A DNA stretch of 64,000 bases, from assembly GCF_988243305.1 (NCBI RefSeq), contig NZ_OZ547136.1. One strand, 5' to 3'. Below are positions 18,955 through 64,000 of this stretch, in pieces. The position numbers were made by a program, and so were the translations under genes. Below the pieces are notes generated by a model, which saw only the letters and a list, made by a program, of their open reading frames with translations, did no database searches and was not told the origin of the DNA. The first letter of the stretch is position 1. Each line of letters opens with the position of its first letter.

Positions 18955-18970
18955 TCGCGTTATACGGCAA

Positions 18971-19002
18971 AAGCCGATGTCATGGCAGACATCGGCTTTT
19001 TT
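18971..19002. terminator. Bidirectional terminator between argS and flhE
   Basis: Hairpin AAGCCGATGTC...GACATCGGCTT flanked by A-run and T-run. Confidence 0.55.
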
Positions 19003-19006
19003 ATCA

Positions 19007-25809: not shown

Positions 25810-27411
25810 TCAGGATACCACTGGCGCAATCTGTAACTGCGCCGACTCATGTCTTGCTACTTCATGTTCTTCAAGGGTAAATGCCGCCACGCGCGACGAA
25901 AGATTGTCAGCCTGGTTCGCCAGTTGTTCCGTTGCCGCCGCCGCTTCTTCTACCAGGGAGGCGTTCTGCTGTGTCACCTGATCCATCTGGCTGACAGCCT
26001 GTGCAACTTGTTCAATCCCACGCCGTTGTTCTTCCGACGCCGAGGCAATTTCTCCCATAATGTCGTTCACGCGGGTTACTGAACTGACAATATCGGTCAT
26101 GGTCGCGGCGGCGTTATTCACCAGTTTCGAACCCTGCTGGACACGATTGACAGACTCTTCGATCAGCCCTTTGATCTCTTTTGCCGCCTGGGCGCTACGG
26201 CTGGCAAGATTGCGCACTTCACCTGCCACTACCGCAAAACCACGCCCCTGCTCTCCGGCGCGAGCCGCTTCCACTGCCGCATTCAGGGCCAGAATATTGG
26301 TCTGGAAAGCAATGCCGTCGATAACGCTGATAATGTCGCCAATTTTTTGCGAGCTGGTGGCGATTTCCTGCATGGTGTGAGTCATGGTACTGACCTGGAC
26401 ACCCCCCGCCTGCGCCGTTGTCGCGGCTTTTTTTGCCAGTTCCGAAGCCTGTCGCGCGTTATCGGCGTTTTGCCCTACCGTGGCGGTTAATTGCTCCATA
26501 CTGGCGGCCGTTTGTGACAACGATGCCGCCTGCTGTTCGGTACGACTTGAGAGATCGTTATTGCCTGCGACAATCTCCGCGATACCAATGTGCATCTCCT
26601 GGCTTCCCTTACGCACATCACTCACCGTCCCACGTAAAGCCTGCTGCATGGTCTTCAGGCTGGCAAAAATGGCGGTGATCTCATTGCGACCATATACCGC
26701 AATCGGACGCGCCAGATTACCCGCAGCAATGCTGTCAAAATGGCTACCGATGATGGCCAGTGGTTGAACAATCATCTTGCGCGTCCACCACAGCGCACTG
26801 CTGATGTAGAGCGCTGCAACAATAATCATGCTGATAAACACCAGCGCCGAAATCTGATAGTTACGCTGGCTTTGCGCACTGGCGGCTTCCAGCACATGGT
26901 TGATCTCCTGCTGCCAGGCCTCAAAGTTAACGTCAAACGCATTCTGTGATTCCTGCACCGGCGCAGTGAGGAAATCCGAAAGTTGATTACTTTCAAGCCA
27001 GGTCGCCTGATGTTCGAGATCGTTGTGCCAACGGGCAAAACTTTTCTCCGTCTCTTTTTGCAACGCCCTGACGTGCTCGTTGCCCGCAGTCATCGCCATA
27101 AAACTTTTAAACAGCGTGGTGGATTGCGTCAGACTGGCGCGCGCCGTCGTCATCAACGTTTTAATGTCATCCGCCGGATAGCTAAGCGCCGTCAGAGTGC
27201 CCGCTTTGTTCAGCGCGGTACTGGCCTGTAACATTACCGCCCGAGTTTGCGCTAATGCCGCACGTTGCTGATTGCTCTGCTCGACCTGATTCAATCGTTG
27301 CAAATCATCGCGAAATGCCCAAAAAGACATGCCGGTACTGCCAATCTGCAAGATCCCGCAGAGAATCAAAATTAAAAACAGCGTGGTCGAAATTCGAATA
27401 CGATTAAACAT
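25810..27411 (-). CDS. tap: Methyl-accepting chemotaxis protein Tap
   Basis: 533-aa MCP with conserved signalling domain. Confidence 0.9.
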   Translation of the reverse strand: MFNRIRISTTLFLILILCGILQIGSTGMSFWAFRDDLQRLNQVEQSNQQRAALAQTRAVMLQASTALNKAGTLTALSYPADDIKTLMTTARASLTQSTTLFKSFMAMTAGNEHVRALQKETEKSFARWHNDLEHQATWLESNQLSDFLTAPVQESQNAFDVNFEAWQQEINHVLEAASAQSQRNYQISALVFISMIIVAALYISSALWWTRKMIVQPLAIIGSHFDSIAAGNLARPIAVYGRNEITAIFASLKTMQQALRGTVSDVRKGSQEMHIGIAEIVAGNNDLSSRTEQQAASLSQTAASMEQLTATVGQNADNARQASELAKKAATTAQAGGVQVSTMTHTMQEIATSSQKIGDIISVIDGIAFQTNILALNAAVEAARAGEQGRGFAVVAGEVRNLASRSAQAAKEIKGLIEESVNRVQQGSKLVNNAAATMTDIVSSVTRVNDIMGEIASASEEQRRGIEQVAQAVSQMDQVTQQNASLVEEAAAATEQLANQADNLSSRVAAFTLEEHEVARHESAQLQIAPVVS

Positions 27412-27456
27412 CAACGCTCCCCATCAGGCGGCAATGACCGCGTTAGTCAATGCTCG

Positions 27457-29118
27457 TTAAAATGTTTCCCAGTTTGGATCTTGTTCAGCAATTCGCAGTC
27501 GTGGCTGTGCCGGTGGTTGCTCACTGGCAGGACGAGATGATGTTTGCGTTTTATTGGTGAGTGGGCTGGCTGCCAGATGGAACGCAGAAACCGCTTGTGT
27601 TAAACGACTGGCCTGTTCTTCCAGCGCAGCGGCGGCAGCAGCTGATTCCTGCACCAGCGATGCGTTCTGTTGCGTGACGCGATCCATTTCCGAAACCGCC
27701 AATGCGACTTGATCGATGCCGCGGCTCTGTTCATCTGATGCCGATGCAATTTCGCCCATAATGTCAGTCACGCGAGTGACAGCATTGACGATATTGTTCA
27801 TTGTTTCCCCGGCGCTTTCGACCAACACCGAACCGGTATCAACGCGCGAGACGGAGTCTTCAATGAGGGCTTTGATCTCTTTTGCCGCCTGGGCGCTGCG
27901 ACTGGCAAGATTACGCACTTCGCCCGCCACCACGGCAAAACCACGGCCTTGTTCACCCGCTCGCGCGGCTTCAACCGCGGCATTCAGCGCGAGGATATTA
28001 GTCTGGAAGGCAATACCGTCGATAACGCTGATAATGTCGGCAATTTTCTTCGAACTATCGGCGATCTCATGCATCGTTTTCACTACGCCATCCACTACTT
28101 TGCCGCCATGCTGGGCGGTGTCGGAGGCACTTTGCGCCAGTTGTGAGGCCTGGCGGGCGTTATCGGCGTTTTGCTTCACTGTCGCGGTGAGCTGCTCCAT
28201 GCTGGCGGCAGTTTCTTCCAGCGCAGATGCCTGCTGTTCAGTACGGGAGGAAAGATCGGTATTGCCCGCCGCAATTTCACGGGTACCGACATAGATGGCA
28301 TCTGAACCTTCGCGCACATGAGTGACGGTGTCAGTCAAAGAGCGTTGCATATGTGAGACGCTCTGCGCCAGATCGCCCATTTCACTGCGCCCGTCAATGG
28401 TCAGGGTATTCGCCAGGTTACCACCGGCGATTTCGCGAATATGAGCAATAATTTTTGCCAGCGGTGTAAGCAACATACGGCGAATGCCGTACCACGCCAC
28501 CAGCAGAATCATTACCACCACCAGCGCGATAACCGCCAGTTGCCACTGGGCAAATCGGTAATCATCTGCGTTGTCAGTGACGATATCGCGATACAGTTTT
28601 TCACTGCTGAGGGCGTACTGAGCAAACGCTTCGCCCATTGCATTTTGCATTCCCTGGGTTGGCTGAGCGAAATAAGCTCCAGTATTGCCATAATCAAGAT
28701 AATCAATCAGTTCAGTTAATGCTGTGTGATAGTTTTTATATTTTTCATCAATATTACGACTGGTAGCGACCATTTCAGGTAACGGCGCCATGCTTTTAAA
28801 TTTTTTATAATGTGTCGCGGCCTGGGCCAAAGTTTTCCTGGCGCTATCAAGCAATTCAACTTTGGCGTTACTTTGTTGATTGGAAGAATCCATCATCATC
28901 CGCACCGCTGATCGACTCAGGTTAATGCGCGTTTGCAGCATTAAATCCCAGGTTGACGTCAGCTCGCCCTGCTGTTCCCGTAATTGATTGGAAACCACAA
29001 AGCTCTTCTGGCTATGGTGAAGGGAAGAAAAAAACAGACTGCCGGAAATAAGCTGTAACAGTGCGAATACCCCCAGCACCATTACCAACAGCGTGACTAC
29101 GCGGATACGGTTAATCAT
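27457..29118 (-). CDS. tar: Methyl-accepting chemotaxis protein Tar
   Basis: 553 aa from [12 protein letters not shown]-terminal NWETF pentapeptide. Confidence 0.9.
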
Positions 29119-29262
29119 AAGGCACCTTCCTGAAAACAAGTTGATCTCGTTATCGGCAAGGAAGGGGGAAACTTTATTGCTGATGCCACCCGCCGCGAAA
29201 CTGAAATAAAAAACCCGATGCGCAGGTCATCGGGTTCATTGCAATTGAGGAAATCAGGAGAA

Positions 29263-29766
29263 TTACGCCACTTCTGACGCCGCGCTATCTAACAGCGCCA
29301 TCTCTTCGCTGTTCAGCAGTTTTTCGATGTTCACCAGAATCAACATGCGGTCGCCCAGTGCGCCGAGTCCAGTGAGATATTCTGTTGAAAGCGTCACGGC
29401 AAATTCCGGTGCCGGACGAATTTGCTCCGCCGTCAATGAAAGAACGTCCGAAACCCCGTCCACTACGATGCCGACGACCCGCTGCCCGAGATTCAGGACA
29501 ATAACTACTGTGTTGTCGTTATAGTCCACATCCACCTGACTGAACTTAATTCGTAAGTCGACAATCGGCACAATAACACCGCGCAGATTAGTGACACCTT
29601 TGATAAACGCTGGCGTGTTTGCAATCCGTGTCACCTGATCGTAACCACGGATCTCCTGCACTTTCAGAATATCAATACCGTACTCTTCGTCACCAAGGGT
29701 AAATACCAGGAATTCCTGGCCTGACGGCTCGCTGGCCAGCTTTGTTACATTCGTCATACCGGTCAT
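29263..29766 (-). CDS. cheW: Chemotaxis coupling protein CheW
   Basis: 167 aa. Confidence 0.95.
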
Positions 29767-29786
29767 ATTGTTACCTTTTTACTCAT

Positions 29787-32678
<2,892 letters not shown>

Positions 32679-32682
<4 letters not shown>

Positions 32683-33566
32683 GCTTCCTCGGTTGTCGTC
32701 TGTTGTTGCGGATTTTTCACCGCACGCACATGCTCTTCCAGTTCAATAAACGACGGACGTTCGCTGGAATAGAGCGTTTTGCGACCAAACTCAACGGCGA
32801 TAGGCGGTGCGTAACCGTTCAGATTAGAAAGCAGTGTGACTTTGACGCATTGCATCATTTTGCTGGTTTCGGCGCTTTTCTGACGTAAAACACTCGCTAA
32901 TGGGGAAATAAATCCGTAAGCCAATAAAATACCGAGGAAAGTCCCCACCATCGCATGTGCGATAAGCGCCCCCAGCTCGGCGGCAGGACGATCGGCTGAA
33001 CCTAACGCGTGAACGACCCCCATCACAGCCGCGACAATACCAAACGCCGGAAGTGAGTCCCCGACCAATGCCAGACTGTTCGCCGGGACTTCTGCTTCGC
33101 TTTCGTGCGTCTCAATCTCTTCATCCATCAGGGCTTCAATTTCGAAGGTATTCATGTGACCGCTGATAATCAGGCGCAGATAATCGACGATAAAATCAAG
33201 CATGACGCTATCCGCAAGGATGCGTGGGTAGCTGGCGAAGATCTCGCTCTCACGGGGATTTTCAATATCGCGTTCCAACGAAAACATCCCCATCTGCCGC
33301 GATTTCGCCATCAACCGATAAAGCAGAGCCAGCAGATCCATATACATTGCTTTGGTATATTTGGAGCGACGAAATAGCAACGGCAGCGCCTTCAGCGTGC
33401 CTTTAATCGCTTTGCCATTATTGCCGACGATAAACGACCCAATCCCTGCACCGGCAATAATCACCAGTTCAGCGGGTTGATAGAGTGCTCCAAGGCTTCC
33501 ACCGGTCATCAGATAACCGCCGAAAACTGTACCGAGAACAACCAGGTAACCTAATAAGATAAGCAC
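32679..33566 (-). CDS. motA: Flagellar motor stator protein MotA
   Basis: 295 aa, overlaps motB by 4 nt. Confidence 0.95.
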
Positions 33567-33692
33567 GACATCATCCTTCCACTGTTGACCATGACAGGAT
33601 GTTCAGTCGTCAGACGTTAACGCGCGATTGGGGGAAAAAAAAGCAGCGGTACGTCGTTACCGCTGCTGGAATGTTTCGCCACACCGTATCAG

Positions 33693-34271
33693 TTAAACAG
33701 CCTGTACTCTCTGTTCATCCAGCAGTTGTGGGATAATATCGGCAGGATTCTGGGAAAGTTTACGTCTTTTTACTGCCCGGGATGGCGGCTGACATAAGCT
33801 GCAGGCAAAGCTGCCAACAGGCTGGTGAGCGTGGGTAATAAAATTGCCGCCGCAGCAGTTGCAGCTGGAAAGTTGCAGTAATCCACTTTCAACAAACCGT
33901 ACCAATGTCCAGGCACGGGTTAATGCCAGTAGCGGTCCTTCTTCTGCTTGCGGGCACTGTTCAAGGTATAAACGGTAGGCTTTGATTACCGCATCGACGC
34001 CATTACACAAGCCGGTTTTCAGTAAAAACTGCCATGCGTTACAGAACATCGAAGCATGAACGTTTTGTTCCCAGGTCATAAACCAGTCGGTTGAGAATGG
34101 CAGCATGCCTTTCGGCGGTGGGCTTCCGCGCAGTTCTTTATAGAGTTTTATCAGGCGTCCGCGACTTAACTGTGTTTCGCTTTCCAGCATCTGCAAACGA
34201 GCGCCCAGGGTGATCAATTCCATTGCCAGCTGAATATCCCGCGCTTCCTGAACAATGCTTTTTTCACTCAT
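33693..34271 (-). CDS. flhC: Flagellar master regulator FlhC
   Basis: 192 aa with Cys cluster. Confidence 0.95.
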
Positions 34272-34273
34272 GA

Positions 34274-34624
34274 TCACGCCCTTTTCTTGCGCAGCGCTTC
34301 TTCAGGCTGATTAACATCATTCAGCAAGCGTGTTGAGAGCATGATGCCGGTATGAATTTGCTGGAGATCGTCAACGCGGGAATCTTGCGTCAACTGAGTA
34401 ATCGTCTGGTGGCTGTCAAAACGGAAGTGACAAACCAGTTGATTGGTTTCTGCCAGCTTAACCATTTGCGGAAGAGTCAGTGCCGCTAACGTTGTCGCCA
34501 TTTCTTCATTTATGCCGAGACGAAACATTGCGGACGCTTTGTCCTGAACAATCAGACGCTGTGCAAGTAGTAAATATGACAAGTTGATGTCATAAATGTG
34601 TTTCAGCAACTCGGAGGTATGCAT
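34274..34624 (-). CDS. flhD: Flagellar master regulator FlhD
   Basis: 116 aa from [17 protein letters not shown] extends to 34633. Confidence 0.9.
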
Positions 34625-35404
34625 TATTCCCACCCAGAATAACCAACTTTATTTTTATGCGGTCTCACCGCACCCCGTGATGTCGCCGGGAAGCCCCGGT
34701 AAAAAATAATTAGCATTAGAATAGTTGCGATAAGCTGCAATAGGCAGAGCCCCTTTTTTGGATTTAATAAGTCCTTACAAATAGAAGGGGTTCTTTACAC
34801 TTATCTAAGATTTTTCCTAAATCGACGCAACTTTACTCGTCACTACACTCACATACAACGGAGGGGGGCTGCGATTTTCAATAATGTGTGATGCAGATCA
34901 CACAAAACGCTCAATTACTTAACATAAATGTATAAGTCATACTTTTGTTTTGGGTGTATTTCAATCTGTTAAAAAGTTTTTCGCTACGATAGCAAGTAAA
35001 AATGAAACAGGAATAATCGAAATGGGATGTTGCGCACAGTTAAAATAACTCACCGTAAATAATCATCTGCTATAAATAATTGCTTTAATGCAATACCCGA
35101 TAAGCTATTTTTAAACAGACACTTACCGCACAACAAACTAATTAAATACAAAGAAAGGCAACAATCAACTTAATGTTAATAAAATGTTTTACATATATTA
35201 ACCACTTGTTTGATATGGAGAATCAGTACATTATTTTCTTATAATTACAGTTGAAATCATATGATCACCGAGAGTGATTGATTAATTGTATTTACTAATA
35301 ATCACACTAATATTTACCTGTTTGACTGAGTTGGGATTGCGTCGATTCTCCATTAGGAGTAAAGCTTTAATGTCACCTGAAGTTCACAGAATAAGGAACA
35401 GGTT
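34625..35404 (-). promoter_or_regulatory. flhDC promoter/regulatory region (uninterrupted)
   Basis: ~780 bp AT-rich intergenic region upstream of flhD; no ORF resembling a transposase. Confidence 0.5.
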
Positions 35405-35833
35405 ATGAGCTATAGCAATATTCTTGTCGCCGTTGCGGTTACACCGGAAAGTCAGCAACTGCTAGCAAAAGCGGTATCTATCGCCAGGCCAGTAAAGGGA
35501 CACATCAGTTTAATTACTCTCGCTTCCGACCCGGAAATGTACAATCAATTAGCCGCGCCGATGCTTGAAGATTTACGCAGCGTGATGCAGGAAGAAACGC
35601 AAAGCTTTCTTGATAAGTTAATTCAGGATGCGGGGTATCCCGTTGACGAGACGTTTATTGCCTACGGTGAGTTAAGCGAACATATTCTGGAGGTTTGTCG
35701 CAAACATCATTTCGATTTGGTGATTTGCGGTAATCACAATCACAGTTTCTTTTCGCGAGCATCCTGCTCGGCGAAAAGAGTGATTGCCTCAAGTGAGGTC
35801 GATGTGCTGTTAGTTCCACTTACGGGAGATTAA
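35405..35833 (+). CDS. uspC: Universal stress protein UspC
   Basis: 142 aa Usp-family protein. Confidence 0.85.
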   Translation: MSYSNILVAVAVTPESQQLLAKAVSIARPVKGHISLITLASDPEMYNQLAAPMLEDLRSVMQEETQSFLDKLIQDAGYPVDETFIAYGELSEHILEVCRKHHFDLVICGNHNHSFFSRASCSAKRVIASSEVDVLLVPLTGD

Positions 35834-35839
35834 CCGCAC

Positions 35840-39192
<3,353 letters not shown>

Positions 39193-39206
39193 CATACTCT
39201 CCTTAC

Positions 39207-40721
39207 TCAGGCAACTGCCTGGCTGACTTTAGGCATCGCAAGGCTTAATGCCTGACGCTCATCTGCCTGCTCGTGTAACAATTCACCGGCGATTTCGCCT
39301 TCGCGCATCACCACAATCCGGTCGGCAACGCCGAGGACTTCAGGTAAGTCGCTGGAGGCAAACAGCACCGCCACGCCCTGCGCTGCCAGCGCATAAATCA
39401 CGTTGTAAATTTCATGCTTAGCACCAACATCAATGCCGCGCGTAGGTTCATCCAGCAAAATGACCTTCATCTCTTCCGATAACCAGCGGCCCAGAATGGC
39501 TTTTTGCTGATTTCCGCCTGAAAGATTCATGATCAGTTGCTCTGCGCCCGGCGTTTTGATGTTGAGCGAACGAATGTGGTGATCGGCATTGTTTTCTTCC
39601 CAACCGTTGTTGATTACACAACCGCCGAGCACATGTTTGCGTCTGGCACTGATGTTGATATTGTCGCGAACGGAGTGCACAGGAATAATGCCTTCCGCTT
39701 TGCGATCTTCCGGGCAGAGCATCATGCCTGCGGCAATAGCGTGGCTCGGTTTACGAATATCAATCGGCCGTTGGTCGATATAAACCTGACCGGCGGTGAT
39801 TTGCGTACCGCCAAACATGCCTTTCATTAATTCGCTACGCCCTGCCCCGACCAGACCAAACAGACCGACAATTTCTCCACTGCGAACCGCCAGACTTATT
39901 GGCGTTCGCACGCCTGGTGCTTTCACAGCATCAAGACGCAGCCGCTCCTCGCCATAACTACGCGGTTGCCAGCCGTAGATATCGCCGATGTCGCGCCCGA
40001 CCATCGCCTGCACCAGCGCGTCATGATCAACCTGCTGCATATCGGTAAAGGTTTTGACATAACGCCCATCTTTAAAGACGGTGATGGCATCACTGAGGGC
40101 AAATATTTCTTCCATACGGTGAGAAACATATAAGATCACGCGCCCTTCTTTACGCAGTTCACGAATAACGCGGAAAAGATTGTCGATTTCACGGGCAGAA
40201 AGGGAACTGGTTGGCTCATCAAAGGCGATGATTTTGGCGTTACGCGCCAGCGCTTTGGCAATCTCAACCATCTGCCACTGACCAATAGAGAGATATTTCA
40301 GCGGCGTATCCGGGTCAATATCCATACCAAGATGTTTAAGTTGTAAACCCGCTTCATAATTCAGCAGTGAGCGATTCACTATGCCGCCTTTATGAGGAAG
40401 CTGGCCGAGATAGATGTTTTCCGCGACGGTCATTTCCGGCACGAGATGCAGTTCCTGATAAATAATCGCCACACCCGCGTTAAGTGCCGCGGTCGTGTCG
40501 GAAAAGGACATTTCTTGTCCATTAATCACTACAGAACCCGTGGTTGGCGCATAGTTGCCGCTGAGGATTTTTAAGAGAGTTGATTTTCCTGCGCCATTTT
40601 CACCCATCAACGCATGAACCTGACCGGCATAGCAGTCAAAACTAATATCCGTCAGCGCCTTAACGCCGGGAAACGTTTTACCGATGCCGCGAAATGAGAG
40701 ATACGGGGTAGACTGTTGCAT
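39207..40721 (-). CDS. araG: Arabinose ABC transporter ATPase AraG
   Basis: 504 aa with two Walker A motifs ([18 protein letters not shown]). Confidence 0.9.
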
Positions 40722-40790
40722 AACGTCTCCGTGAATCACTGGTCGTTCACACCCCCTCTGCATCATGCAGAGGGGAATTTTTCCGGCAAA

Positions 40791-41780
40791 TTACTTACCG
40801 CCTAAACCTTTTTTCTCCAGTTCTTCTTTAAAGTTGTCACGCGTGATCAGTACCACGTCGGTAACTTCGGTAAATTTTGGCGGTTCAACGTCTTTTGCTA
40901 CCCAGTTGTAAAGCATTTCACTGGATTTATAGCCATGTACGTCCGGGCTTGGCAGCAGGGAACCGTAGAAGCCGGTTGCCTGTGCTTTAGACAGTTCGCT
41001 TACTGCATCCACACCGTTAATACCAATACCGATGATATCGGCTGCTTTAAAGCCCTGACCTTCGGTTGCACGTACGCCGCCAAGTACGGTGCTGTCGTTC
41101 ATACCGACGATCAGCCAATGTTTAACTTCCGGATGTTGAACCAGCATTGAGTTGGCAGCGTCAAATGCCCCCGGGATGTCGTTAGATTTGGTAGGTACCT
41201 GATAAATTTGTTTTTCCGGGAATCCGGCCGCTTTCAGCGCATCCATAGATCCCGTAGTACGGCGACGTGCCGTATCCAGTTCGTTGGCGGTAATCGCCAT
41301 CACCGCGCTTTCTTTGACATCCCAGCCACGTTTCTGCATCTCTTTATACAGTTCCTGGCCCTGACGTTCGCCAATTTTAGTCGCCGCCATCATCACCAGA
41401 GGAACGGTATCCATTGGCTTACCTTTGGCGTTAACAAACTGGTCATCCACGGCAATCACTTTCATATCGTAACCACGCGCTTTCGCCACAATGGCAGAGC
41501 CGAGCTTCGGGTCCGGAGTACAAATAACGAAACCTTTTGCGCCACTGGCTGCCAGGCTATCGATCGCGTTCAATGTTTTTTCGCCATCCGGCACGGCAAT
41601 CTTAATAACCTCAAACCCTAAATCCTTCCCGGCTTTATCGGCAAACTTCCATTCGGTCTGGAACCACGGCTCTTCCGGTTGCTTCACCAGGAAACCGAGC
41701 TTCAAGTTCTCCGCCATAGCGGATTGTGACATAACGGCTGCCAGACCAATGGCTGCCAGGGCTTTAGTAAATTTGTGCAT
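40791..41780 (-). CDS. araF: Arabinose-binding periplasmic protein AraF
   Basis: 329 aa with signal peptide. Confidence 0.9.
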   Translation of the reverse strand: MHKFTKALAAIGLAAVMSQSAMAENLKLGFLVKQPEEPWFQTEWKFADKAGKDLGFEVIKIAVPDGEKTLNAIDSLAASGAKGFVICTPDPKLGSAIVAKARGYDMKVIAVDDQFVNAKGKPMDTVPLVMMAATKIGERQGQELYKEMQKRGWDVKESAVMAITANELDTARRRTTGSMDALKAAGFPEKQIYQVPTKSNDIPGAFDAANSMLVQHPEVKHWLIVGMNDSTVLGGVRATEGQGFKAADIIGIGINGVDAVSELSKAQATGFYGSLLPSPDVHGYKSSEMLYNWVAKDVEPPKFTEVTDVVLITRDNFKEELEKKGLGGK

Positions 41781-48515: not shown

Positions 48516-50348
48516 TCAATGTTTCAACGACCAGAAGATCTTTTCTGCCAGACCTTGCGAAATACCCGGCACTTTTGCAATTTCCTCAACGCTGGCGTTA
48601 CGTAAACCTTGCAAACCGCCCATATATTTCAACAACATTTGCCGACGTTTTGGCCCGACGCCTTCAATGGTTTCCAGGGAACTGGTATTTTTGACCTTCG
48701 CCCGTTTCTTACGGTGCCCGCCAATCGCGTGATCGTGTGATTCATCGCGAATATGCTGGATAACATGCAGCGCGGGAGAATCTGGCGGCAAAATAAATCC
48801 CTCACCTTCCGGCTCAAAGAACAGCGTTTCCAGCCCAGCCTTACGATCTGCTCCTTTGGCAACGCCAAGAAGCAGCGGATGATTTTTATCCCATGAGACA
48901 TCCAGTTCGGCGAAGACATTTTTCGCCTGCGCAAGCTGGCCTTTGCCGCCGTCAATAAGGATCACATCCGGGATCTTACTGTCGTCGATGGCTTTACCAT
49001 AACGCCGACGCAGCACCTGATTCATCGCCGCATAATCATCGCCCGGCGTGATGCCAGTAATGTTATAGCGCCGATACTCCGCACGCAGCGGGCCGTTAGC
49101 ATCAAACACCACACAGGAAGCGACGGTTTGTTCACCCATGGTATGGCTGATGTCAAAGCACTCCATCCGCTTCACTTCCGGCAATTTCAACACGCTGGCA
49201 AGCGCGGTCAGTCGCTGGTGAACGGTAGATTGCTGCGAAAGTTTGCTGGTTAAGGCCGTCGCCGCATTGGTGCGCGCGAGTTTCAGATAACGCGCCCGAT
49301 CGCCGCGAGGTTTGGTTTGAACATTAATCTTGCGTCCCGCCAGTTCTGAAAGGGAATCGGCGAGCAGCGTTTTATCGCTAAGATTAAAATCGAGCAGGAT
49401 CTCACCCGGTAAGGTGCGCATCTGGCTGCCTTGTAAATAGAACTGACCTACGAAGGTTTCTACCACCTCGCTCAGTTCCGTACCGCCAGGCACTTTCGGG
49501 AAATAGCTGCGGCTGCCGAGCACTTTGCCCTGACGAATGAACAATACATGGACACAAGCCATTCCCGCATCGAACGCCACACCAATAACGTCGAGGTCGT
49601 CGCCGGTATTGGACACAAACTGTTTTTCGGTGACGCGTCGCACCGCCTGAATTTGGTCGCGAATACGTGCCGCTTCTTCAAACTCCAGATTCTGGCTGGC
49701 AGTTTCCATACGGCTAATGAGTTGCGTAAGCACCTGATCATCTTTGCCAGACAAAAACAGGCGCACATACTCGACCTGCTGAGCGTATTCTTCTTCACTC
49801 ACCAGTCCTTCAACGCACGGTCCCAGACAGCGCCCTATCTGATATTGCAGACACGGACGCGAGCGATTGCGATAAACACTATTTTCGCACTGGCGAATGG
49901 GGAATATCTTTTGCAGTAGCGCCAGTGTTTCACGTACGGCATAGCCATTCGGGAACGGGCCGAAATATTCACCTTTAGCATGCTTCGCACCACGATGCAT
50001 CGCCAGACGCGGATGGGTATCGCCACTCAGGAAGATAAAGGGATAAGATTTATCATCGCGTAGCAAAACGTTGTAACGCGGCTGATAGAGTTTGATGTAG
50101 TTGTGTTCCAGCAACAGCGCTTCGGTTTCTGTATGAGTAACCGTTACATCAATTTGCTGGATCTGGGCGACCAGCGCTTCGGTTTTGCGCGAAGCGAGGT
50201 TGCTACGGAAATAGCTGGAAAGCCGTTTTTTCAGGTCTTTCGCTTTGCCGACATAGATAACCGTACCACCAGCATCGTACATGCGATAAACGCCTGGCTG
50301 GCTGGTTACGGTTTTTAAAAACGCTTTTGCGTCAAACTGATCACTCAC
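48516..50348 (-). CDS. uvrC: Excinuclease ABC subunit C
   Basis: 610 aa with GIY-YIG N-terminus. Confidence 0.95.
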
Positions 50349-51001
50349 TGACTTGATAATGTCTCCGCATTACACAGACCATGGCGAATTGCCAGGTGAG
50401 TCAGCTCAACATCGCCATGAATGTTTAGTTTACTGAACATACGATAGCGGTAGCTGTTCACCGTTTTCGGACTGAGATTGAGCTGTTCTGAGATCTCATT
50501 GACCTTCTGGCCCTTGGTGATCATCAGCATAATCTGCAATTCACGTTCAGACAAACTGGCAAATGGGCTTTCTGTTTTTTCTGGTTCGATCTGGCTTAAC
50601 GCCATTTGTTGAGCGATGTCAGAAGCAATGTAACGCTGCCCTGAATAGACAGAACGGATCGCACTCACGACTTCCTGCGGAGCCGCGCCTTTGCTGAGGT
50701 AGCCAGCAGCACCGGCCTGCATGACTTTCGCTGGTAAAGGGTTTTCTGTATGGACGGTAAGCATGATGATTTTGACATCAGCTGTGGAACGCGCGATTTT
50801 ACGCGTCGCCTCAAGACCGCCAATGCCCGGCATACTCATGTCCATTAGCACCACGTCAACGGCATTTGCCCGGCACCACTTAACGGCGTCTTCACCGCAC
50901 GATGCCTCTCCGACGACTTTTATACCCTTTATATCTTCCAGAATGCGTCGTATCCCTGCGCGCACCAGTTCGTGGTCATCAACAAGTAGAACGTTGATCA
51001 A
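50345..51001 (-). CDS. uvrY: Response regulator UvrY
   Basis: 218 aa receiver plus LuxR HTH. Confidence 0.95.
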
Positions 51002-51459
51002 AGGAATATCTCCAGAAATAGGGATAACGCTACTGATAGTTAGTCATTCGTATATTAGCGGTTTTTATTGCAACTTTGAAACGTTAAAAATGGTGGGTAT
51101 TCGATTTTTCTCTCGTTTTTGTAAATTCGATTGTCCACAGTTATGGTCACGCCCGTCACCAACGGCTTCTGGGATCGTTTCACAGTAAGCCCTACGATGA
51201 AATGTGACAAAAATTGACTTTATTCAGCAAAAATGAAAATCAGCCCGCTGAATATGTAACATTAATTAACCCGAACAATACGGGCAAAAAACATTCATGA
51301 TAAAAATATTTATTGGTCATTATATTAACGTATTTTATAGCACTGCCGATATCACGCTCAAAAAACAACCACTGCTATTTTTAGCAAAGCTTATGGTATA
51401 CTCCGCCGCCTTAACATTTTTCACCGCAAATTTTCATTGCAACATGACGAGGAAAATAA

Positions 51460-51684
51460 ATGAGTACGCCTGATTTTTCTACTGCCGAGAATAATCAAGA
51501 ACTGGCAAATGAAGTCTCCTGCCTGAAAGCGATGCTGACGCTGATGCTGCAGGCGATGGGACAAGCTGACGCGGGCCGCGTGATGTTAAAGATGGAAAAA
51601 CAGCTTGCGCTGATCGAAGACGAAACCCAGGCTGCAGTATTTTCCAAAACGGTTAAGCAAATTAAACAAGCCTACCGTCAGTAA
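51460..51684 (+). CDS. yecF: YecF (DUF2594)
   Basis: 74-aa ORF. Confidence 0.8.
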
Positions 51685-51751
51685 TATAAAACCGGCTGAG
51701 AGCGTGCCTTTCAGCCGGTTTTTGCATCTGGCACGCAGAACAGAAAAGAGA

Positions 51752-52474
51752 TCAAATTAAGCCAGTAGCGGCCGCGTAACAGGCCACCTGGGTCTTATTT
51801 GGTGCATTGATTTTTTTCTGCATGTTTTTCTGATGGAAATTGACCGTATTCTCAGAGATTGACAAAATCATCGCTATCTCTGCTGATGTCTTCCCTTCCG
51901 CCGTCCATTTCAAAATTTCTTTTTCGCGCTTGCTGAAATTCATCTCTGGCGTCATCACTATTTCATCATTTAAACGCATCAGAGCCATCAGACTTTCGCG
52001 CACCAGTAACTGCATTTTTAATTGCAGTTCATCACTAAGAATGGGTATTTCGCGCGTGCTGCAACGGGAAAAGGACAAAAAGCCCAGCGCCCGATTTGGC
52101 AGCATTAAATACTGAGTGACACCGCGGCGTAAACCATGCGCGCGCGCGGCTTCCCATAACGGCTGAGCTTCGCTGAATAAGTCATCATTCCACATTAAAT
52201 GGCCCTGACTAAAGTTTTCAGGGTTCAGCACCGGATCAATTGCGAGAAAGTTTTTTGCCTGATAATAACTAACCCACGCCTCAGGGTAATTGGTGTAGAA
52301 AGCCACTTTAGGTCGCGTGAATGGTACCGGGTGGCGAACACATAACGAATAGTAGTCGTACTCCAGCTGCTGAGCCTGAAGCTCTATTTCATGGTAGACC
52401 TCTTCTGCGGCCTCCATCCTCTGAAAACGCAACAGCATCGTGCGACGCCAGCTGAAAAAATCCGTATCCTGCAT
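51752..52474 (-). CDS. sdiA: LuxR-type quorum-sensing regulator SdiA
   Basis: 240 aa from MQDTDFFSWRR. Confidence 0.9.
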   Translation of the reverse strand: MQDTDFFSWRRTMLLRFQRMEAAEEVYHEIELQAQQLEYDYYSLCVRHPVPFTRPKVAFYTNYPEAWVSYYQAKNFLAIDPVLNPENFSQGHLMWNDDLFSEAQPLWEAARAHGLRRGVTQYLMLPNRALGFLSFSRCSTREIPILSDELQLKMQLLVRESLMALMRLNDEIVMTPEMNFSKREKEILKWTAEGKTSAEIAMILSISENTVNFHQKNMQKKINAPNKTQVACYAAATGLI

Positions 52475-52519
52475 AGTAAACCGCAACGCCCCTGAGAGTG
52501 AGTATCATTTATAATGATA

Positions 52520-52699
52520 ATTCAAACTATCACATAAATAAGATTTATATATAATTTATATTATTCAGGCAATGAATTACTTTTGCAAGCCATCGCATTC
52601 TCTTATGTTATTAATGAGTTATGCTGATTTATTAAGCACTTTTATTACGCTTGAAATGGCGTCCCGCCCCGACAGGTGAATCGTCGGGGCTGATTTTTT
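52520..52699 (+). ncRNA. sdsN: Candidate sRNA (SdsN-like) in sdiA-tcyN intergenic region; 5' end not determined
   Basis: Strong +-strand intrinsic terminator with no upstream +-strand CDS; location matches my recollection of the SdsN sRNAs next to sdiA. Confidence 0.3.
52667..52699 (+). terminator. Rho-independent terminator (+ strand)
   Basis: CCCCGAC-loop-GTCGGGG then TGATTTTTT. Confidence 0.5.
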
Positions 52700-52703
52700 C
52701 TTA

Positions 52704-53456
52704 TTATTGCAGCAGAAACTTCTCGAGGAACTGGCGGGTGCGAGGCTGCTCGGGATCTGCAAATAACGCTTTTGCGGCCCCCTGCTCGACTATCCGCCCC
52801 TGGTCCATAAAGATCGCCCGGTCCGCAACATCCCGGGCAAAGCTCATTTCGTGCGTCACAATCACCATCGTGCGCTTTTCCTGCGCCAGCTGGCGGATGG
52901 TGTTCAGGACTTCGCCCACCAGCTCTGGATCCAGCGCCGACGTTGGCTCGTCAAACAAAATCACTTCAGGACGCATAGCCAGCGCTCGCGCAATCGCGAC
53001 ACGCTGCTGTTGACCGCCAGACAAACGACGTGGATAGCTGGTTTCTTTACCTGCCAGCCCAACTTTCGCCAACAGCTCGCGAGCGCGCACCGTGGCCTCT
53101 TCTTTCGGTTCGCCTTTGACGATCACCGGCCCTTCAATAATGTTCTCCAGCACCGTACGATGCGGAAACAAATTAAAGTTCTGGAAGACAAACCCGACGT
53201 GCTGACGCAACTGGCGAATCAGCGATTTTTGCTGACTTAATGAACGTGCAGTATCAATAGTGATATCGCCAACGGTGATGGTTCCCGCTTCCGGTTGTTC
53301 CAGCAGATTTATGCTGCGTAGCAACGTGGTTTTGCCGGAACCACTCGGACCGATAATTGCCACTACTTCGCCAGGCTTTACCTCGAGGTCGATACCGTGC
53401 AGCACCGTCTGACCGTGAAATTTTTTCACCAGGTTCTTAACTTCAATGGCACTCAT
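52704..53456 (-). CDS. tcyN: Cystine ABC transporter ATPase TcyN (YecC)
   Basis: 250 aa with Walker A GPSGSGKTT. Confidence 0.9.
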   Translation of the reverse strand: MSAIEVKNLVKKFHGQTVLHGIDLEVKPGEVVAIIGPSGSGKTTLLRSINLLEQPEAGTITVGDITIDTARSLSQQKSLIRQLRQHVGFVFQNFNLFPHRTVLENIIEGPVIVKGEPKEEATVRARELLAKVGLAGKETSYPRRLSGGQQQRVAIARALAMRPEVILFDEPTSALDPELVGEVLNTIRQLAQEKRTMVIVTHEMSFARDVADRAIFMDQGRIVEQGAAKALFADPEQPRTRQFLEKFLLQ

Positions 53457-54121
53457 TTTGGTTCTCTCTCCTGGCGATTAAGTTGATTCTCAAAATGGTT
53501 CTGCAACGTCGATAACACTGTCGCCATGATCCAGTAGATGAGCGAAGCCGCCAGATACATGGTGAACACCTCCAGCGTACGCGAGGTAATCAACTGCGCC
53601 TGACGGAACAGCTCCGGCACCTGGATTGTCGCGGCCAGCGACGTATCTTTTACCAGGCTGATAAAGCTGTTCGACAGCGGCGGCAACGCCACCCGCGCCG
53701 CCTGTGGCAAAATCGCGCGACGCATGGTCTGCCATGGCGTCATACCAATACTGGCAGCAGCTTCCCACTGACCTTTATCAATAGAAGAAATGGCGGCGCG
53801 CAGCGTTTCGGCAGCATAGGCGGCAGTGTTTAGCGACAGACCAATCATTGCTGACGGAATGGGATCTAGTTCGATGCCAAACTGCGGCAGGCCGTAATAG
53901 ATCATAAACAGTTGTGCGATGAGTGGCGTACCACGAAAAATAGAGATATAAAAACGCGCCAGCCAGCGCACGGGCCAGATTGGTGAAAGGCGCATCAGCG
54001 CGAGAATAAACCCTAGCAGTAAGCCAAAAAACATGCCGCCGATACTGAGTTGCAGCGTATACCCAGCCCCTTTCAGCAGGAACGGCAAGGAATCAATAAC
54101 CAGTTGTATACTTTCTTGCAT
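53453..54121 (-). CDS. tcyL: Cystine ABC transporter permease TcyL (YecS)
   Basis: 222-aa membrane protein. Confidence 0.9.
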   Translation of the reverse strand: MQESIQLVIDSLPFLLKGAGYTLQLSIGGMFFGLLLGFILALMRLSPIWPVRWLARFYISIFRGTPLIAQLFMIYYGLPQFGIELDPIPSAMIGLSLNTAAYAAETLRAAISSIDKGQWEAAASIGMTPWQTMRRAILPQAARVALPPLSNSFISLVKDTSLAATIQVPELFRQAQLITSRTLEVFTMYLAASLIYWIMATVLSTLQNHFENQLNRQEREPK

Positions 54122-54135
54122 GAGCGTTTCCGGAG

Positions 54136-55288
<1,153 letters not shown>

Positions 55289-55487
55289 GACAGGATTTCC
55301 TTGTGTATGTGGGGTGCTCTGTGGCGCTCTGAGATGTGATTTGATTGAGGGTTTTACAGCGCGGACATTTAACTTCCAGATAACTGAAGCTGGCTCGTGC
55401 CAGTAGCTTGTTACAATGTCGGCACCGTATGTTTCGATACATGGCCGCATAACCTCCTGCTTTGTTGTTGATATCTTTATCACTCAA

Positions 55488-55508
55488 TCGATCGACAAAA
55501 ACGATCGA
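55488..55508 (-). promoter_or_regulatory. Paired GATC sites upstream of com-mom
   Basis: GATC at 55490-55493 and 55503-55506, about 50-65 bp upstream of the com start. Confidence 0.35.
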
Positions 55509-55698
55509 TTTGATTTATTTAATTGATACAACAAATAACACGAAATGTCATTAGCGAAAATTTATGAGTTTGATCACTAATTTTAAACGGTGCTGTAACG
55601 CATAAGTGCTGAATGATTGTACATTTGAATACCGCAAAGCAAACAAATCAACTAATTTATAGAAGTCAATTGGTTAATTGCCAGCGTAAGAGGCTGCT

Positions 55699-55992
55699 AT
55701 GGACAATCATGTAACGACGAGAAATCGAAAAATGATTGAAAATGCGGAAATCTATAATGATTATTTTTCCGATTATTCAGATGCCTGCAAATACAGTTCG
55801 AGTGCGGGAGAGTTCATATGCTTCAACTTTTTTATTAAATCTTATGTTTTTCCTCCACAGCAAGAAGATGGAGGTGTGCCACCTCCTGAAATCACTTTGC
55901 ACCGTATAGCCTCCGTCTCAATGATGGAGCAACAGGCTAATGAGCTGTATAGCATTCTGGGAACGATTCTACAAAAGCGTGAATCGGACTAA
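55699..55992 (+). CDS. Hypothetical protein (97 aa), opposite strand, AT-rich
   Basis: ORF with AAGAGG SD; low-GC context. Confidence 0.35.
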   Translation: MDNHVTTRNRKMIENAEIYNDYFSDYSDACKYSSSAGEFICFNFFIKSYVFPPQQEDGGVPPPEITLHRIASVSMMEQQANELYSILGTILQKRESD

Positions 55993-56159
55993 TGATACCG
56001 GTTCATTTGCCTGCCCGGATGGGGAAGCAGGATTGACTGCTCCATAAGCAGCTATATTTCTGAATACGAAATACTATCCAGCGATTACATATGGCTGGAT
56101 AGCGGCAAAGATGTTTTCATTAGTGTCAAACCGGCAGAGGACACCACCGGTTTGTATTG

Positions 56160-56414
56160 TTACATCATGGTACTGTCAGTTCCGGGCTGAGCCGGGTCTG
56201 GTTGCTCTGGCTGCGCGTCGGTTTTCGGCTCATTATCAGCATCACTGGCCGCAACTGCTGGCCCAATAAGTTTTGCCAGCACTTCATCAACGTAAGTGTC
56301 GATTTGTGCCTCAAAATCCTTGCGGACCTGCGCTTTCAGCAACTTATTTACTTCACCGGAATACAGTGCCTGTTTTACCAGGTCTTCAGTGACGGTGCCT
56401 TTAATTTCTGGCAT
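56160..56414 (-). CDS. Hypothetical small protein (84 aa)
   Basis: AGGAGG SD with 6-nt spacer; acidic proline-rich C-terminus. Confidence 0.5.
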   Translation of the reverse strand: MPEIKGTVTEDLVKQALYSGEVNKLLKAQVRKDFEAQIDTYVDEVLAKLIGPAVAASDADNEPKTDAQPEQPDPAQPGTDSTMM

Positions 56415-56449
56415 GTATATCCTCCTTATGCGGGAATAAAGCCCTGCAA

Positions 56450-56632
56450 TCAGGGCTGGGTCGGGTCTTTTGGGAGCGGAGTTACCTGCGCTGTTTTACT
56501 GAGTTTTTCAGCTGCTGCGTCCTCAATTTTGCGGCGAACATAATTTCTGATGGCCTTATAACCACCACTCACCAGATATAACGCACATACTGCCGTGCAG
56601 AAATACAATAAAATAAGCTGTAAAAATGTCAT
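56450..56632 (-). CDS. Hypothetical small membrane protein (60 aa)
   Basis: ATG 56632 with GGGAGGG SD; one predicted TM helix; hairpin at 56441-56456 overlapping stop. Confidence 0.45.
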   Translation of the reverse strand: MTFLQLILLYFCTAVCALYLVSGGYKAIRNYVRRKIEDAAAEKLSKTAQVTPLPKDPTQP

Positions 56633-56776
56633 TATCCCTCCCAATTATTGACATGGTGTTGACACCGGTAATATCTGTTAGGTAAAAAGGTGCACTGCAT
56701 TTTTTGCTTTGGATATAACGATCTTTTTGCCGCCGGTTTCTTGTTTTCCCTTACCGGCGGCATTTTTTTATCCTGC

Positions 56777-58831
56777 TTACGCGTTATTCACTTCCACCAC
56801 GATACTGTCAATCAGTACCGGGTAAGTCGCATTTTTAGTGATATCGGTCACGCGCAACTTGTCTGCCGTAAACGTGCCGACCGGAGACTGCGACAGCATG
56901 AATGGTGTCCCGTCCTTACCATCAATGACCGGCGTCACCTCAATACTGTTGTTACCGGCAAAACGGAAGCCCAGCGTATGCCATTCGTTATTAAATGCGC
57001 CGAATGACCCCAGCTTCGTGTTCTGCGCCGTGTTTCCTTTGTGATACATCACGTTAAGGTCTGTGGCATCGCTCTGTACGTAGAACGATGCCAGCAGGTT
57101 ATGACCGGCATTTCCTTCCAGAGTAACCCCTTGCGGCAGGGCAGAAACCGGCCAGTACAGCGCCAGTGCGTACTGATTAGCCGTAAGCGCGCCATCGAGT
57201 TTAAAACGACAACTGACAAGACCACCTTTACCCAGCAGGTCCGCACCATTACCAGCATCATGCTCAAGGTACCAGGGGGCTCTTCCTGTTTCCTTGGTCA
57301 GTTTCATTGCCTTACCCCCGCTGGCTCCGGCATCATCCACGATTTGAGCCTTGCCACCTCCGGCAGCCCAACCCTGTGGTGTCAACCGTCCTTCAGACTC
57401 AGATGCCCGGTAAGCAAATAGCGTACTCATCGTCGTGGTGTCTGCGGGTGGCGTGGACGGTTTTGATGGTGTATCAGGTGACGGCTTCTCATCCGGTGGT
57501 GTCACGGTCTGCCCGCGCATCAGTTCAGCCGTGCGCCCTGCATGGAGCATAATAGCTGAGGCCAGACGGTCTGAAATGACGCCCCTGCGTGCCCATGAGC
57601 TGAAATGGCTGTCACGCTGTGTCGAAACAAAACTGCCCTGGGTTCGGGATGCTGCACCGTAATACCCGACAGCCACAATATCCGGGTCTTCCGCCGGAGC
57701 ATTCGTTGGCGTGCTCTGTCCATTCTCATCCGTCAGGAACGGTACAAAGAAAATTTTCTGTGCTTCCTTGCCTTTGTAGCCACCGTATACTGCCTCATAT
57801 TTATCGGTGCCAGCGTTTTTCCAGTAATACGTGGTATCACCGCAAATCCACGGCACCGTGGTGGCATTTCCACTCACGCACTGCGCAGCAAGCGGAGCCA
57901 GGTCAGTTCTGAACTGCTGAACCATGGCCGTGAATAAACTATTATGCTGCTGGCTTCCTGAGGCAAGGTCTGCCTCTCCCTGCATCCAGACCACAGCCAG
58001 AAGTTTGTTTTTCGGGTTTTTCGCCAGCGCGACTTTGGTGCGGCTTACCAGGTCCTGATACAGAGGTTTACCGGCCCCCCAGCGTGAAGAATCAGCGGAA
58101 GCACCGCTGGCCTCACTGAATGAGCCGTCGGCTCCAGTGGTGAATGCTGACCCGCCACGACAACAGGGCACCAGAAGTATCCCGGCATTCTGTGGGATAT
58201 AGGGAAGCAGTTTTTTGGCAATATGCAACCCCTGACCGACAGTCCCGTACTGGCCTTTTGCCAGATCAGCTTTCGGGTGGTTTATCCCGCTCATATCCTG
58301 AACATCATGCAGGCAGTGGTCTGCCGGAATGATGTCGTTGTATGTACACGACGTACCGTTGGGCGTTACCGCACTGCGGCGTGCCAGTTGCTTAATGCGT
58401 GGGTCCGGGCGGTCAAACGAATCCGGTAACGGCAGCCCCTCGCCGTAGGCCATGCCATTTGACTGACCCGCGAGAATGACAACAAAGTAATATTCCGGCT
58501 CTGAACTGCTGCCATTCGTGCTACCGGAAGGCCCGGCGTTATCCGGTGCATTCCAGTCGGAGGGCGTGAGCGTTCCGGCCACGTCAGATGTGATTGGAAT
58601 GATGCCAGTCACGCCTGAACTGGTGATTTCTGCACTGGGATTACCGGATACCGGCATTACCCATAATGGCTCTTTCGTGCTGAAGCGGATCACGCAGTCT
58701 GCGAAGGTGATCCCCCCTTTATTACCCGAAGGGCGGAAAGGGCTTTCAATAAATGCCACCGTGCCACCGGCAACCTTGACTGAAAACTCTCCGGGCATGG
58801 CGGAGAGCATTTTCCACTTGGAGTCTGACAT
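56777..58831 (-). CDS. Prophage cargo protein with SGNH/SASA-type esterase-like domain (684 aa)
   Basis: Motif YYFVVILAGQSNGMAYGEG (GQSN block); Ser/Thr/Pro-rich linker; C-terminal beta-rich domain; start codon uncertain. Confidence 0.55.
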   Translation of the reverse strand: MSDSKWKMLSAMPGEFSVKVAGGTVAFIESPFRPSGNKGGITFADCVIRFSTKEPLWVMPVSGNPSAEITSSGVTGIIPITSDVAGTLTPSDWNAPDNAGPSGSTNGSSSEPEYYFVVILAGQSNGMAYGEGLPLPDSFDRPDPRIKQLARRSAVTPNGTSCTYNDIIPADHCLHDVQDMSGINHPKADLAKGQYGTVGQGLHIAKKLLPYIPQNAGILLVPCCRGGSAFTTGADGSFSEASGASADSSRWGAGKPLYQDLVSRTKVALAKNPKNKLLAVVWMQGEADLASGSQQHNSLFTAMVQQFRTDLAPLAAQCVSGNATTVPWICGDTTYYWKNAGTDKYEAVYGGYKGKEAQKIFFVPFLTDENGQSTPTNAPAEDPDIVAVGYYGAASRTQGSFVSTQRDSHFSSWARRGVISDRLASAIMLHAGRTAELMRGQTVTPPDEKPSPDTPSKPSTPPADTTTMSTLFAYRASESEGRLTPQGWAAGGGKAQIVDDAGASGGKAMKLTKETGRAPWYLEHDAGNGADLLGKGGLVSCRFKLDGALTANQYALALYWPVSALPQGVTLEGNAGHNLLASFYVQSDATDLNVMYHKGNTAQNTKLGSFGAFNNEWHTLGFRFAGNNSIEVTPVIDGKDGTPFMLSQSPVGTFTADKLRVTDITKNATYPVLIDSIVVEVNNA

Positions 58832-58916
58832 CGTCTTTTCTGCCTGTTTCTGAATTAAACAGAGTCAGAATAGCGACCGCTGAAAAATATGTGTTTTGCG
58901 GAAATTCAAAAAAGCG

Positions 58917-59489
58917 TCACGGTACTTTTGGTGACGGAGCTGGTGAGGCAGGAAAATAACGATAAAGGGTGGAAAGGCCAATATCAAATATCAGTGCGAT
59001 TTGTTTACGGGACTCGCCATTAGCCAGCAAACGGGCGATTTGCTCCCGCTCTTTCTCTGTCAGTTTCTGAGGTCTGCCGCCATGACGCCCCTGAGCACGG
59101 GCAGCAGCAAGACCCGCGCGTGTACGTTCAATAATGAGTTCCCGCTCCATTTCCGCCAGCGCGCCCATTATATGGAAAAAGAAACGTCCCATGGGAGTGG
59201 ATGTATCAATATTGTCCGTAATGCTGCGGAAGTTAACGCCGCGTTGCCGGAGTTCTTCTGTTAAAAGGACAAGGTGCTGCATACTGCGTCCAAGGCGATC
59301 CAGTTTCCAGACCAGCAGGGTATCCCCTGGCCGGAGTCGCTTTAATGCGCGTTTAAGTCCGGGACGCTCCCTTGTCTTACCGCTTATTCTATCTTCGAAA
59401 AACAGCTCACATCCTGCACATTCCAGCGCATTTCTTTGTAGCGCCGTATTCTGGTCATTTGTTGACACCCTGATATACCCAATCAGCAT
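58917..59489 (-). CDS. Serine DNA invertase, Gin/Pin/Hin family
   Basis: MLIGYIRVSTNDQ...WKLDRLGRS with catalytic Ser and C-terminal HTH; adjacent to invertible segment. Confidence 0.9.
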   Translation of the reverse strand: MLIGYIRVSTNDQNTALQRNALECAGCELFFEDRISGKTRERPGLKRALKRLRPGDTLLVWKLDRLGRSMQHLVLLTEELRQRGVNFRSITDNIDTSTPMGRFFFHIMGALAEMERELIIERTRAGLAAARAQGRHGGRPQKLTEKEREQIARLLANGESRKQIALIFDIGLSTLYRYFPASPAPSPKVP

Positions 59490-59554
59490 ACGATTTCCTT
59501 ATTATAAAAAGCCGGAATTGTCGCATGAGGAATAAAACAGAGTTAATCCTGGCT

Positions 59555-59580
59555 TTCCTGAAAACCTCGGTTTACGGGAA
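59555..59580. other. Invertase crossover site (gix/hix-like), left
   Basis: TTCCTGAAAACC-TC-GGTTTACGGGAA: 12-2-12 imperfect palindrome matching Gin/Hin site half-sites. Confidence 0.55.
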
Positions 59581-59690
59581 ACGGTAAACAGGGCGGCGAA
59601 TGCCCTGCCATCGGACGGCACCGCCGTTGCCGCGAATAGACTCGCCACCCCAAGAAATATTAATGGGGTTCCCTTTGACGGGACGCAGGA
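59567..59690. repeat. Inverted repeat, left copy
   Basis: 59567-59636 is an exact reverse complement of 60816-60885; second block 59661-59690 matches 60762-60791 with 1 mismatch. Confidence 0.75.
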
Positions 59691-59928
59691 CATAAACATC
59701 ACTTCTGGTATAACACAGCAGGATGCGGATTCCCGATATATCCAGGATATCAGGCTGGGAGCAGAGAACAGGCAGGTAATGTACGGTGGGGCATATTACT
59801 CTGCGTACGGTAATGTTATGGCAGGCCTGCAGATTGACAGTAAAGTTGATGCTTCAAACGATTTTATAGCATTCAGACCCCTGCAAAAATTAGTCGGAGG
59901 TACATGGATTACGGTATCTCAGTTATAA
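59567..59928 (+). other. Promoterless alternative tail-fiber C-terminal cassette
   Basis: No start codon; reading frame continues from the inverted repeat and ends at TAA 59926-59928; encodes [23 protein letters not shown]... shared with the expressed fiber then diverges. Confidence 0.5.
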
Positions 59929-59979
59929 ATAGTCAGTAAATAATATATTTTAAAACAGATTTATTTCCAGGAGGATTTT

Positions 59980-60501: not shown

Positions 60502-60505
60502 TAAA

Positions 60506-60523
60506 GAAGGCCGGAAGGCCTTC
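60506..60523. terminator. Hairpin between convergent tfa and fiber genes
   Basis: GAAGGCC-GGAA-GGCCTTC; T-rich on the minus strand. Confidence 0.4.
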
Positions 60524-60532
60524 TGAATATCA

Positions 60533-63986: not shown

Positions 63987-64000
63987 TTTCAGTTCGTCAT

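Follow-up and report, generated by a model that had tools for sequence, protein, structure and literature searches.

Wild-type flhDC control region

The flagellar master operon flhDC in the window, the 64-kb stretch of E. coli chromosome examined in the present study, is preceded by a wild-type control region that is free of insertion sequences (IS). The interval from 34625 to 35404 corresponds exactly to the divergent flhD-uspC intergenic region, 780 bp in length, and is the wild-type, IS-free flhDC-uspC control region. Viewed against what is known of K-12, the locus as a whole is almost certainly explained by such a region, in which a weak, CRP-dependent promoter and repression from upstream DNA would result in regulated motility.

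The genes on either side of the interval are intact. flhD is encoded on the minus strand at 34274–34624 (ATG at 34624–34622; 116 amino acids plus stop) and is annotated as such in 2020CK-00188, a strain carrying the identical allele. The open reading frame as listed runs further, to an upstream GTG, and the canonical start, MHTSELL, agrees with the annotated protein. flhC lies on the same strand at 33693–34271 (192 amino acids plus stop). Neither FlhD nor FlhC differs in protein sequence from its K-12 MG1655 counterpart, despite 12 nucleotide differences in the flhDC coding DNA. On the plus strand, uspC extends from an ATG at 35405 to 35833 (142 amino acids), with 10 nucleotide and three amino-acid differences from MG1655. 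Downstream of flhDC, full-length open reading frames are present throughout the interval from flhE to motA, which includes the flh, che, mot, tar and tap genes. Between argS and flhE, the window has a gap of ~50 bp (18955–19006), with yecV and yecT, which occupy ~770 bp in K-12 and 2020CK-00188, missing. This is a common presence/absence polymorphism, since 1,783 of 5,426 genomes have the same yecT-less argS-flhE junction.

Absence of insertions and deletions

The RefSeq genome of MG1655 (NC_000913.3) annotates IS1H (insA5, insB5) between flhD and uspC, and the 1,555 bp separating the two genes in that strain comprise 779 bp of intergenic sequence, 768 bp of IS1H and an 8-bp target duplication, CATAAATG. 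With IS1H and one copy of CATAAATG removed, MG1655 aligns end to end with the window, the only differences being 33 substitutions and a 1-bp insertion (34762). Ten further natural alleles, sampled over the whole range of E. coli matches from near to distant, are likewise collinear with the window and differ in length by single-base indels only, and all 12 alleles (the window, IS-less MG1655 and these ten) are 779–781 bp long. Both of the sites at which an IS might be looked for by comparison with K-12 are unoccupied: CATAAATG at 34923–34930 (−100 to −107), the MG1655 IS1H target, for which both IS1H flanks were aligned, and TTAA at 34919–34922 (−96 to −99), the IS5 hot-spot, are each present as a single copy with nothing between or around them.

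A search for direct and inverted repeats across 34625–35404 found none; no IS1 homology was detected anywhere in the 64-kb window, nor any IS1-end-like sequence in 34625–35404. IS families other than IS1 were assessed indirectly, through copy number and collinearity. Across 5,421 genomes, 34625–35404 occurs in a median of one place per genome and a maximum of two, and a segment of a multi-copy element is therefore excluded. The region shares with the IS-free wild-type flhD-uspC class its collinearity at 779–781 bp, free of terminal inverted repeats, target duplications and multi-copy segments, while the hallmark of IS-activated alleles, an IS upstream of the flhD transcription start together with a flanking target duplication, was looked for in the window and not found. 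The original prediction that no IS lies upstream of flhD is thus borne out by collinearity, by the empty single target sites and by the absence of repeats and IS1 homology, and the alignments to both IS-bearing and IS-free flhDC regions revealed neither an IS-derived segment nor a deletion.

Two ways in which an insertion might nonetheless have escaped notice bear on this result. That the region conceals a remnant of an IS, or a small deletion, is vanishingly improbable, and is refuted by the alignments: it would have to be reconciled with 12 alleles of near-constant length, with the lack of repeats and IS1 homology, and with the finding that no segment occurs in more than two places in any genome. 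It is also very improbable that the strain itself carries an IS which was lost from the sequence through assembly collapse. Mis-assembly of repeats does occur with short reads; however, an IS usually breaks a contig and seldom vanishes, the window is contiguous through two prophages, and the 780 bp are identical in three independent complete assemblies.

A genuinely uninterrupted flhDC upstream region is the E. coli default and already known as such, the IS-bearing state being peculiar to some laboratory K-12 stocks. The flhD-proximal 540 bp (+199 to −341), a query for which matches cannot be joined across an IS1, is held to at least 80% in one place in 5,301 of 5,426 complete E. coli genomes (97.7%); the count of 5,271 returned by the full 780-bp query is unreliable as a total of uninterrupted genomes, because its pieces can be joined across IS1. 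The exceptions that were inspected comprised K-12 stocks with IS1H, NCM3722 with ISEc63 and isolate E05 with an IS1-linked deletion. Given that 97.7% of complete genomes are likewise uninterrupted, the absence of an IS here is in itself almost uninformative.

Promoter and leader architecture

Control elements were placed by homology to K-12 and then read base by base in the window. The flhD transcription start was assigned in this way to the G at 34823, its K-12 equivalent lying 198 nt upstream of the ATG. This K-12 start position coincides with 1978395, at which AsflhD is annotated to end (3′) in MG1655. The corresponding flhD 5′ leader (34625–34823, minus strand) is 199 nt long as compared to 198 nt in K-12, with an extra T at 34762, and has 10 differences from MG1655.

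Upstream of the assigned start and on the same strand, TAAAGT at 34830–34835 is the probable −10 hexamer, as judged by its sequence and its position relative to the start, where K-12 and most strains have TACAGT. A 17-bp spacer separates it from TTGTAT at 34853–34858, the probable −35 hexamer on the basis of spacing, which is identical to that of MG1655. A putative CRP site, TGTGA-TGCAGA-TCACA, was recognised by sequence at 34887–34902, centred 71.5 bp upstream of the start. With a CRP palindrome at −71.5 and a sigma-70 −35/−10 pair, located ~198 nt upstream of the flhD ATG, the window has the sequence layout of the class-1 promoter flhDp. A promoter consensus scan returned sites no more commonly than in shuffled sequences and did not pick up flhDp, a weak promoter; a sigma-70-like match facing uspC at 35216–35245 is no more than expected by chance.

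Within the leader, an RcsAB-box-like motif, TAGGAAAAATCTTA (+5 to +18), and GGA motifs at +7 to +9 and +49 to +51, all on the minus strand, are conserved with MG1655, and represent a putative RcsAB site and putative CsrA sites, respectively. A hairpin predicted at leader positions +30 to +80 (34744–34794) encloses the second GGA motif, and six of the 10 leader differences fall in or beside its arms. These arms read CCCCTT/AAGGGG in the window and CCATTT/AGGTGG in K-12, and both alleles are predicted to fold. Compensatory evolution of the hairpin was considered but is not used as evidence, as covariation across ten haplotypes was no better than in shuffles: pairing of the helix was kept in 95.6% of cells, with one double change only, 255 of 500 shuffles scored as high, and the RNAalifold covariation term was −0.05.

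The DNA between the assigned start and uspC (34824–35404) is AT-rich, with a G+C content of 32.5%, and is common to the divergent uspC promoter. It spans every reported K-12 activating IS position, −96 to −476 being equivalent to 34919–35299. Repressors listed for the flhDC upstream DNA and early leader include H-NS, OmpR, LrhA, RcsAB, Fur, IHF, MatA and YjjQ (PMC5493358). A region homologous to the antisense RNA AsflhD (MG1655 annotation 1978176–1978395) was placed on the plus strand at 34603–34823 by homology only; transcription of AsflhD starts 22 nt inside flhD (PMC9600491). An Rfam scan of 33000–36000 gave no match at E ≤ 1.

Allelic variation in the intergenic region

Divergence from K-12 amounts to 4.4% in the intergenic region (33 SNPs and one indel), compared with 1.3% in the flhDC coding sequence and 2.3% in uspC. 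Among the differences are the third −10 base (SNP 34833), a spacer base (34849) and the 10 leader positions. The original prediction of an intact native control region needs qualification: it stands insofar as there is no IS or deletion and the motifs are conserved, but the region is not identical to that of K-12, and with 34 positions differing, the −10 hexamer among them, its quantitative behaviour may differ from that of the K-12 IS-free allele.

The 780-bp allele of the window was found at an identity of at least 99% in 15 genomes and at 100% in three, the natural isolates 2020CK-00188, R32_14_1F and RMDEC465. Identity to 2020CK-00188 extends over a 14.4-kb tract (27138–41558) that runs from tar to araF and takes in flhDC as well as the intergenic region. 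Outside this tract, divergence between the two sequences reaches 55 differences per kb to the left (19–25 kb) and 23 per kb to the right (41–54 kb), and 2020CK-00188, in contrast to the window, possesses yecV and yecT in the argS-flhE interval and is free of a Mu-like prophage in dcyD. This mosaic of an identical tract and divergent flanks suggests recombination.

The sequence of the putative CRP site is widely shared. A 41-mer around it occurs exactly in 4,224 of 5,387 genomes (78%), and the TGTGA half-site is present in every member of the alignment panel but MG1655. CGTGA is found in K-12, BL21 and CY34; in the other genomes with one mismatch the difference falls elsewhere in the 41-mer. 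The perfect CRP palindrome was considered as a feature special to the window and rejected, since most E. coli genomes share this form and K-12 is the exception. The K-12 laboratory reference has the less consensus-like flhDp CRP half-site, CGTGA, as compared to the window (34887). TGTGA is also present in the flhD upstream region of Enterobacter sp. L069, which was retrieved in an outgroup search by the 16-mer GTGATGCAGATCACAC and was, among the matches listed, the only one with flhD adjoining, the rest being chance matches in unrelated phyla.

The point differences could be given greater weight, in that a structurally intact region might carry lineage-specific changes that measurably alter basal flhDC expression, so that its native control would differ from that in other IS-free strains. 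Candidate changes are TAAAGT for TACAGT at −10, the spacer A at 34849 and the leader cluster from +32 to +80. We consider this unlikely, given that the third −10 position matches the consensus T in neither allele, both of which score 4/6, and that changes common to a natural lineage fit neutral polymorphism. What argues for it is that the −10/spacer 41-mer of the window (hexamer plus the 34849 SNP) is exact in only 270 of 5,387 genomes (5%), that the intergenic region is more diverged from K-12 than are the flanking genes, and that motility changes in K-12 have been associated with point mutations in this promoter, one partially motile isolate having A in place of C at −63 (PMC5100188). The minority haplotype, which combines TAAAGT at −10 and the spacer A at 34849 (~5% of genomes) with the leader changes, could represent natural cis-regulatory variation, altering the basal level of flhDC transcription and thereby motility with no IS involved, a tentative suggestion that we regard as quite improbable.

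Flanking prophages

The flagellar and chemotaxis regulon had also been predicted to sit between two prophages. Both prophages are real and do flank the locus, but what they enclose is only the flh-mot-che cluster (flagellar region II) rather than the regulon. The lambdoid prophage lies ~25 kb and the Mu-like prophage ~19 kb from flhD, with core genes between, and the two have no evident bearing on flhDC control.

The lambdoid prophage arm (1–8752) was delineated by PHROG matches and synteny, and ends in an integrase (7439–8752) adjoining yecE; Ea22-like genes and an excisionase are also among its contents. In addition to the integrase, PHROG matches were obtained for a CI-like repressor (780–1475) and a CII-like regulator (1591–2166), and the annotation of the syntenic locus in strain S4 lists genes for Rha, Ea22-like proteins, excisionase and integrase, and after them DUF72/yecE. 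Integration of this lambdoid prophage is at the 5′ end of yecE, an arrangement that, at ≥80% coverage, just 14 complete genomes share.

At the other side, the end of a Mu-like prophage (54419–64000) is inserted in dcyD, with Com/Mom at its end and then tail, baseplate and recombinase genes. Collinearity with 2020CK-00188 ends at 54420, inside the dcyD gene of that strain, and the DcyD remnant in the window is the C-terminal part only (54136–54420, ~95 codons). The junction is at ~54419–54421, with the prophage starting TGTAT, and the sequence from 54420 on is 100% identical to prophages (Mom, baseplate J, recombinase) located at other chromosomal sites in other strains. None of the complete genomes in the collection covered ≥80% of 49000–64000, and a prophage at the dcyD site was not found among them. 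The Mu-like insertion in dcyD, which encodes D-cysteine desulfhydrase, may be polar on the downstream genes tcyL and tcyN.

Proposed regulation of flhDC

Under the preferred explanation of a wild-type, IS-free region, the flagellar master operon would be driven by a weak sigma-70 promoter (TTGTAT, 17-bp spacer, TAAAGT, start at G 34823), transcription from which would need cAMP-CRP at the perfect TGTGA-N6-TCACA site centred at −71.5. H-NS and the other repressors known from K-12 would bind to the ~580 bp of AT-rich DNA that precedes the start, and the operon would thereby be kept under full environmental control, to which the 199-nt leader, with its conserved post-transcriptional elements, would add control at the post-transcriptional level. 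In K-12 stocks, an IS1 or IS5 element between −96 and −476 separates or disturbs the upstream region, with repression relieved and expression raised (PMC5100188, PMC5493358); as these targets are empty here, motility would be expected to be regulated and not constitutively high. Promoter use, factor binding and the regulated, non-hypermotile phenotype proposed here are drawn from the K-12 literature, against which the intact FlhD and FlhC, the conserved motifs and the uninterrupted spacing are observed directly in the window.

By analogy with K-12, motility of the strain should be subject to the usual regulation by CRP, H-NS and stress, and MG1655 should not be taken as a guide to its level of flhDC expression. 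We anticipate that these results will be of use mainly for annotation, in the form of a feature map of the window, together with promoter-variant frequencies for comparing natural flhDC alleles.

Comparison with IS-bearing and other known states

The statement in the original prediction that some laboratory K-12 lineages carry an IS in this region that raises motility proved correct, with MG1655 carrying IS1H and NCM3722 carrying ISEc63, and the gain in motility documented elsewhere (PMC5100188, PMC5493358). The IS-free K-12 state, represented for instance by BW25113, is poorly motile until an IS inserts (PMC5493358), and in K-12 IS5 at −96/−99 and other IS up to −476 raise both flhD expression and motility (PMC5100188, PMC5493358). 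The IS5 hot-spot position at −96/−99 is attributed to Barker et al. and Wang & Wood (PMC5100188). In the IS5-activated alleles (MC1000; Barker et al., Wang & Wood) the element is at −96/−99 (PMC5100188), whereas the window is without any. Further activating insertions in K-12 have been reported at −166, −303, −315 and −476 (PMC5100188), which convert to window positions 34989, 35126, 35138 and 35299.

Two other structural states also differ from that of the window. In K-12 NCM3722, a Tn3-like transposon, ISEc63, is located ~121 bp ahead of the flhD start (about −121), an element that the window lacks, and in the urine isolate E05 an IS1 adjoins a deletion that has taken flhDC, motAB, cheAW and part of tar, whereas the window has suffered no such loss. 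MG1655 has the same genes in the same order on the same 779/780-bp backbone as the window, with an identical −35 hexamer, RcsAB-box-like motif, GGA motifs and FlhD and FlhC proteins. Unlike the window, it carries IS1H (768 bp) and the 8-bp duplication at the equivalent of 34923–34930, and has CGTGA in the CRP site and TACAGT at −10 where the window has TGTGA and TAAAGT. The IS-free MG1655 stock NZ_AKBV01000001.1 has an uninterrupted 779-bp intergenic region, which aligns with the window allele as one piece at 95.6% identity.
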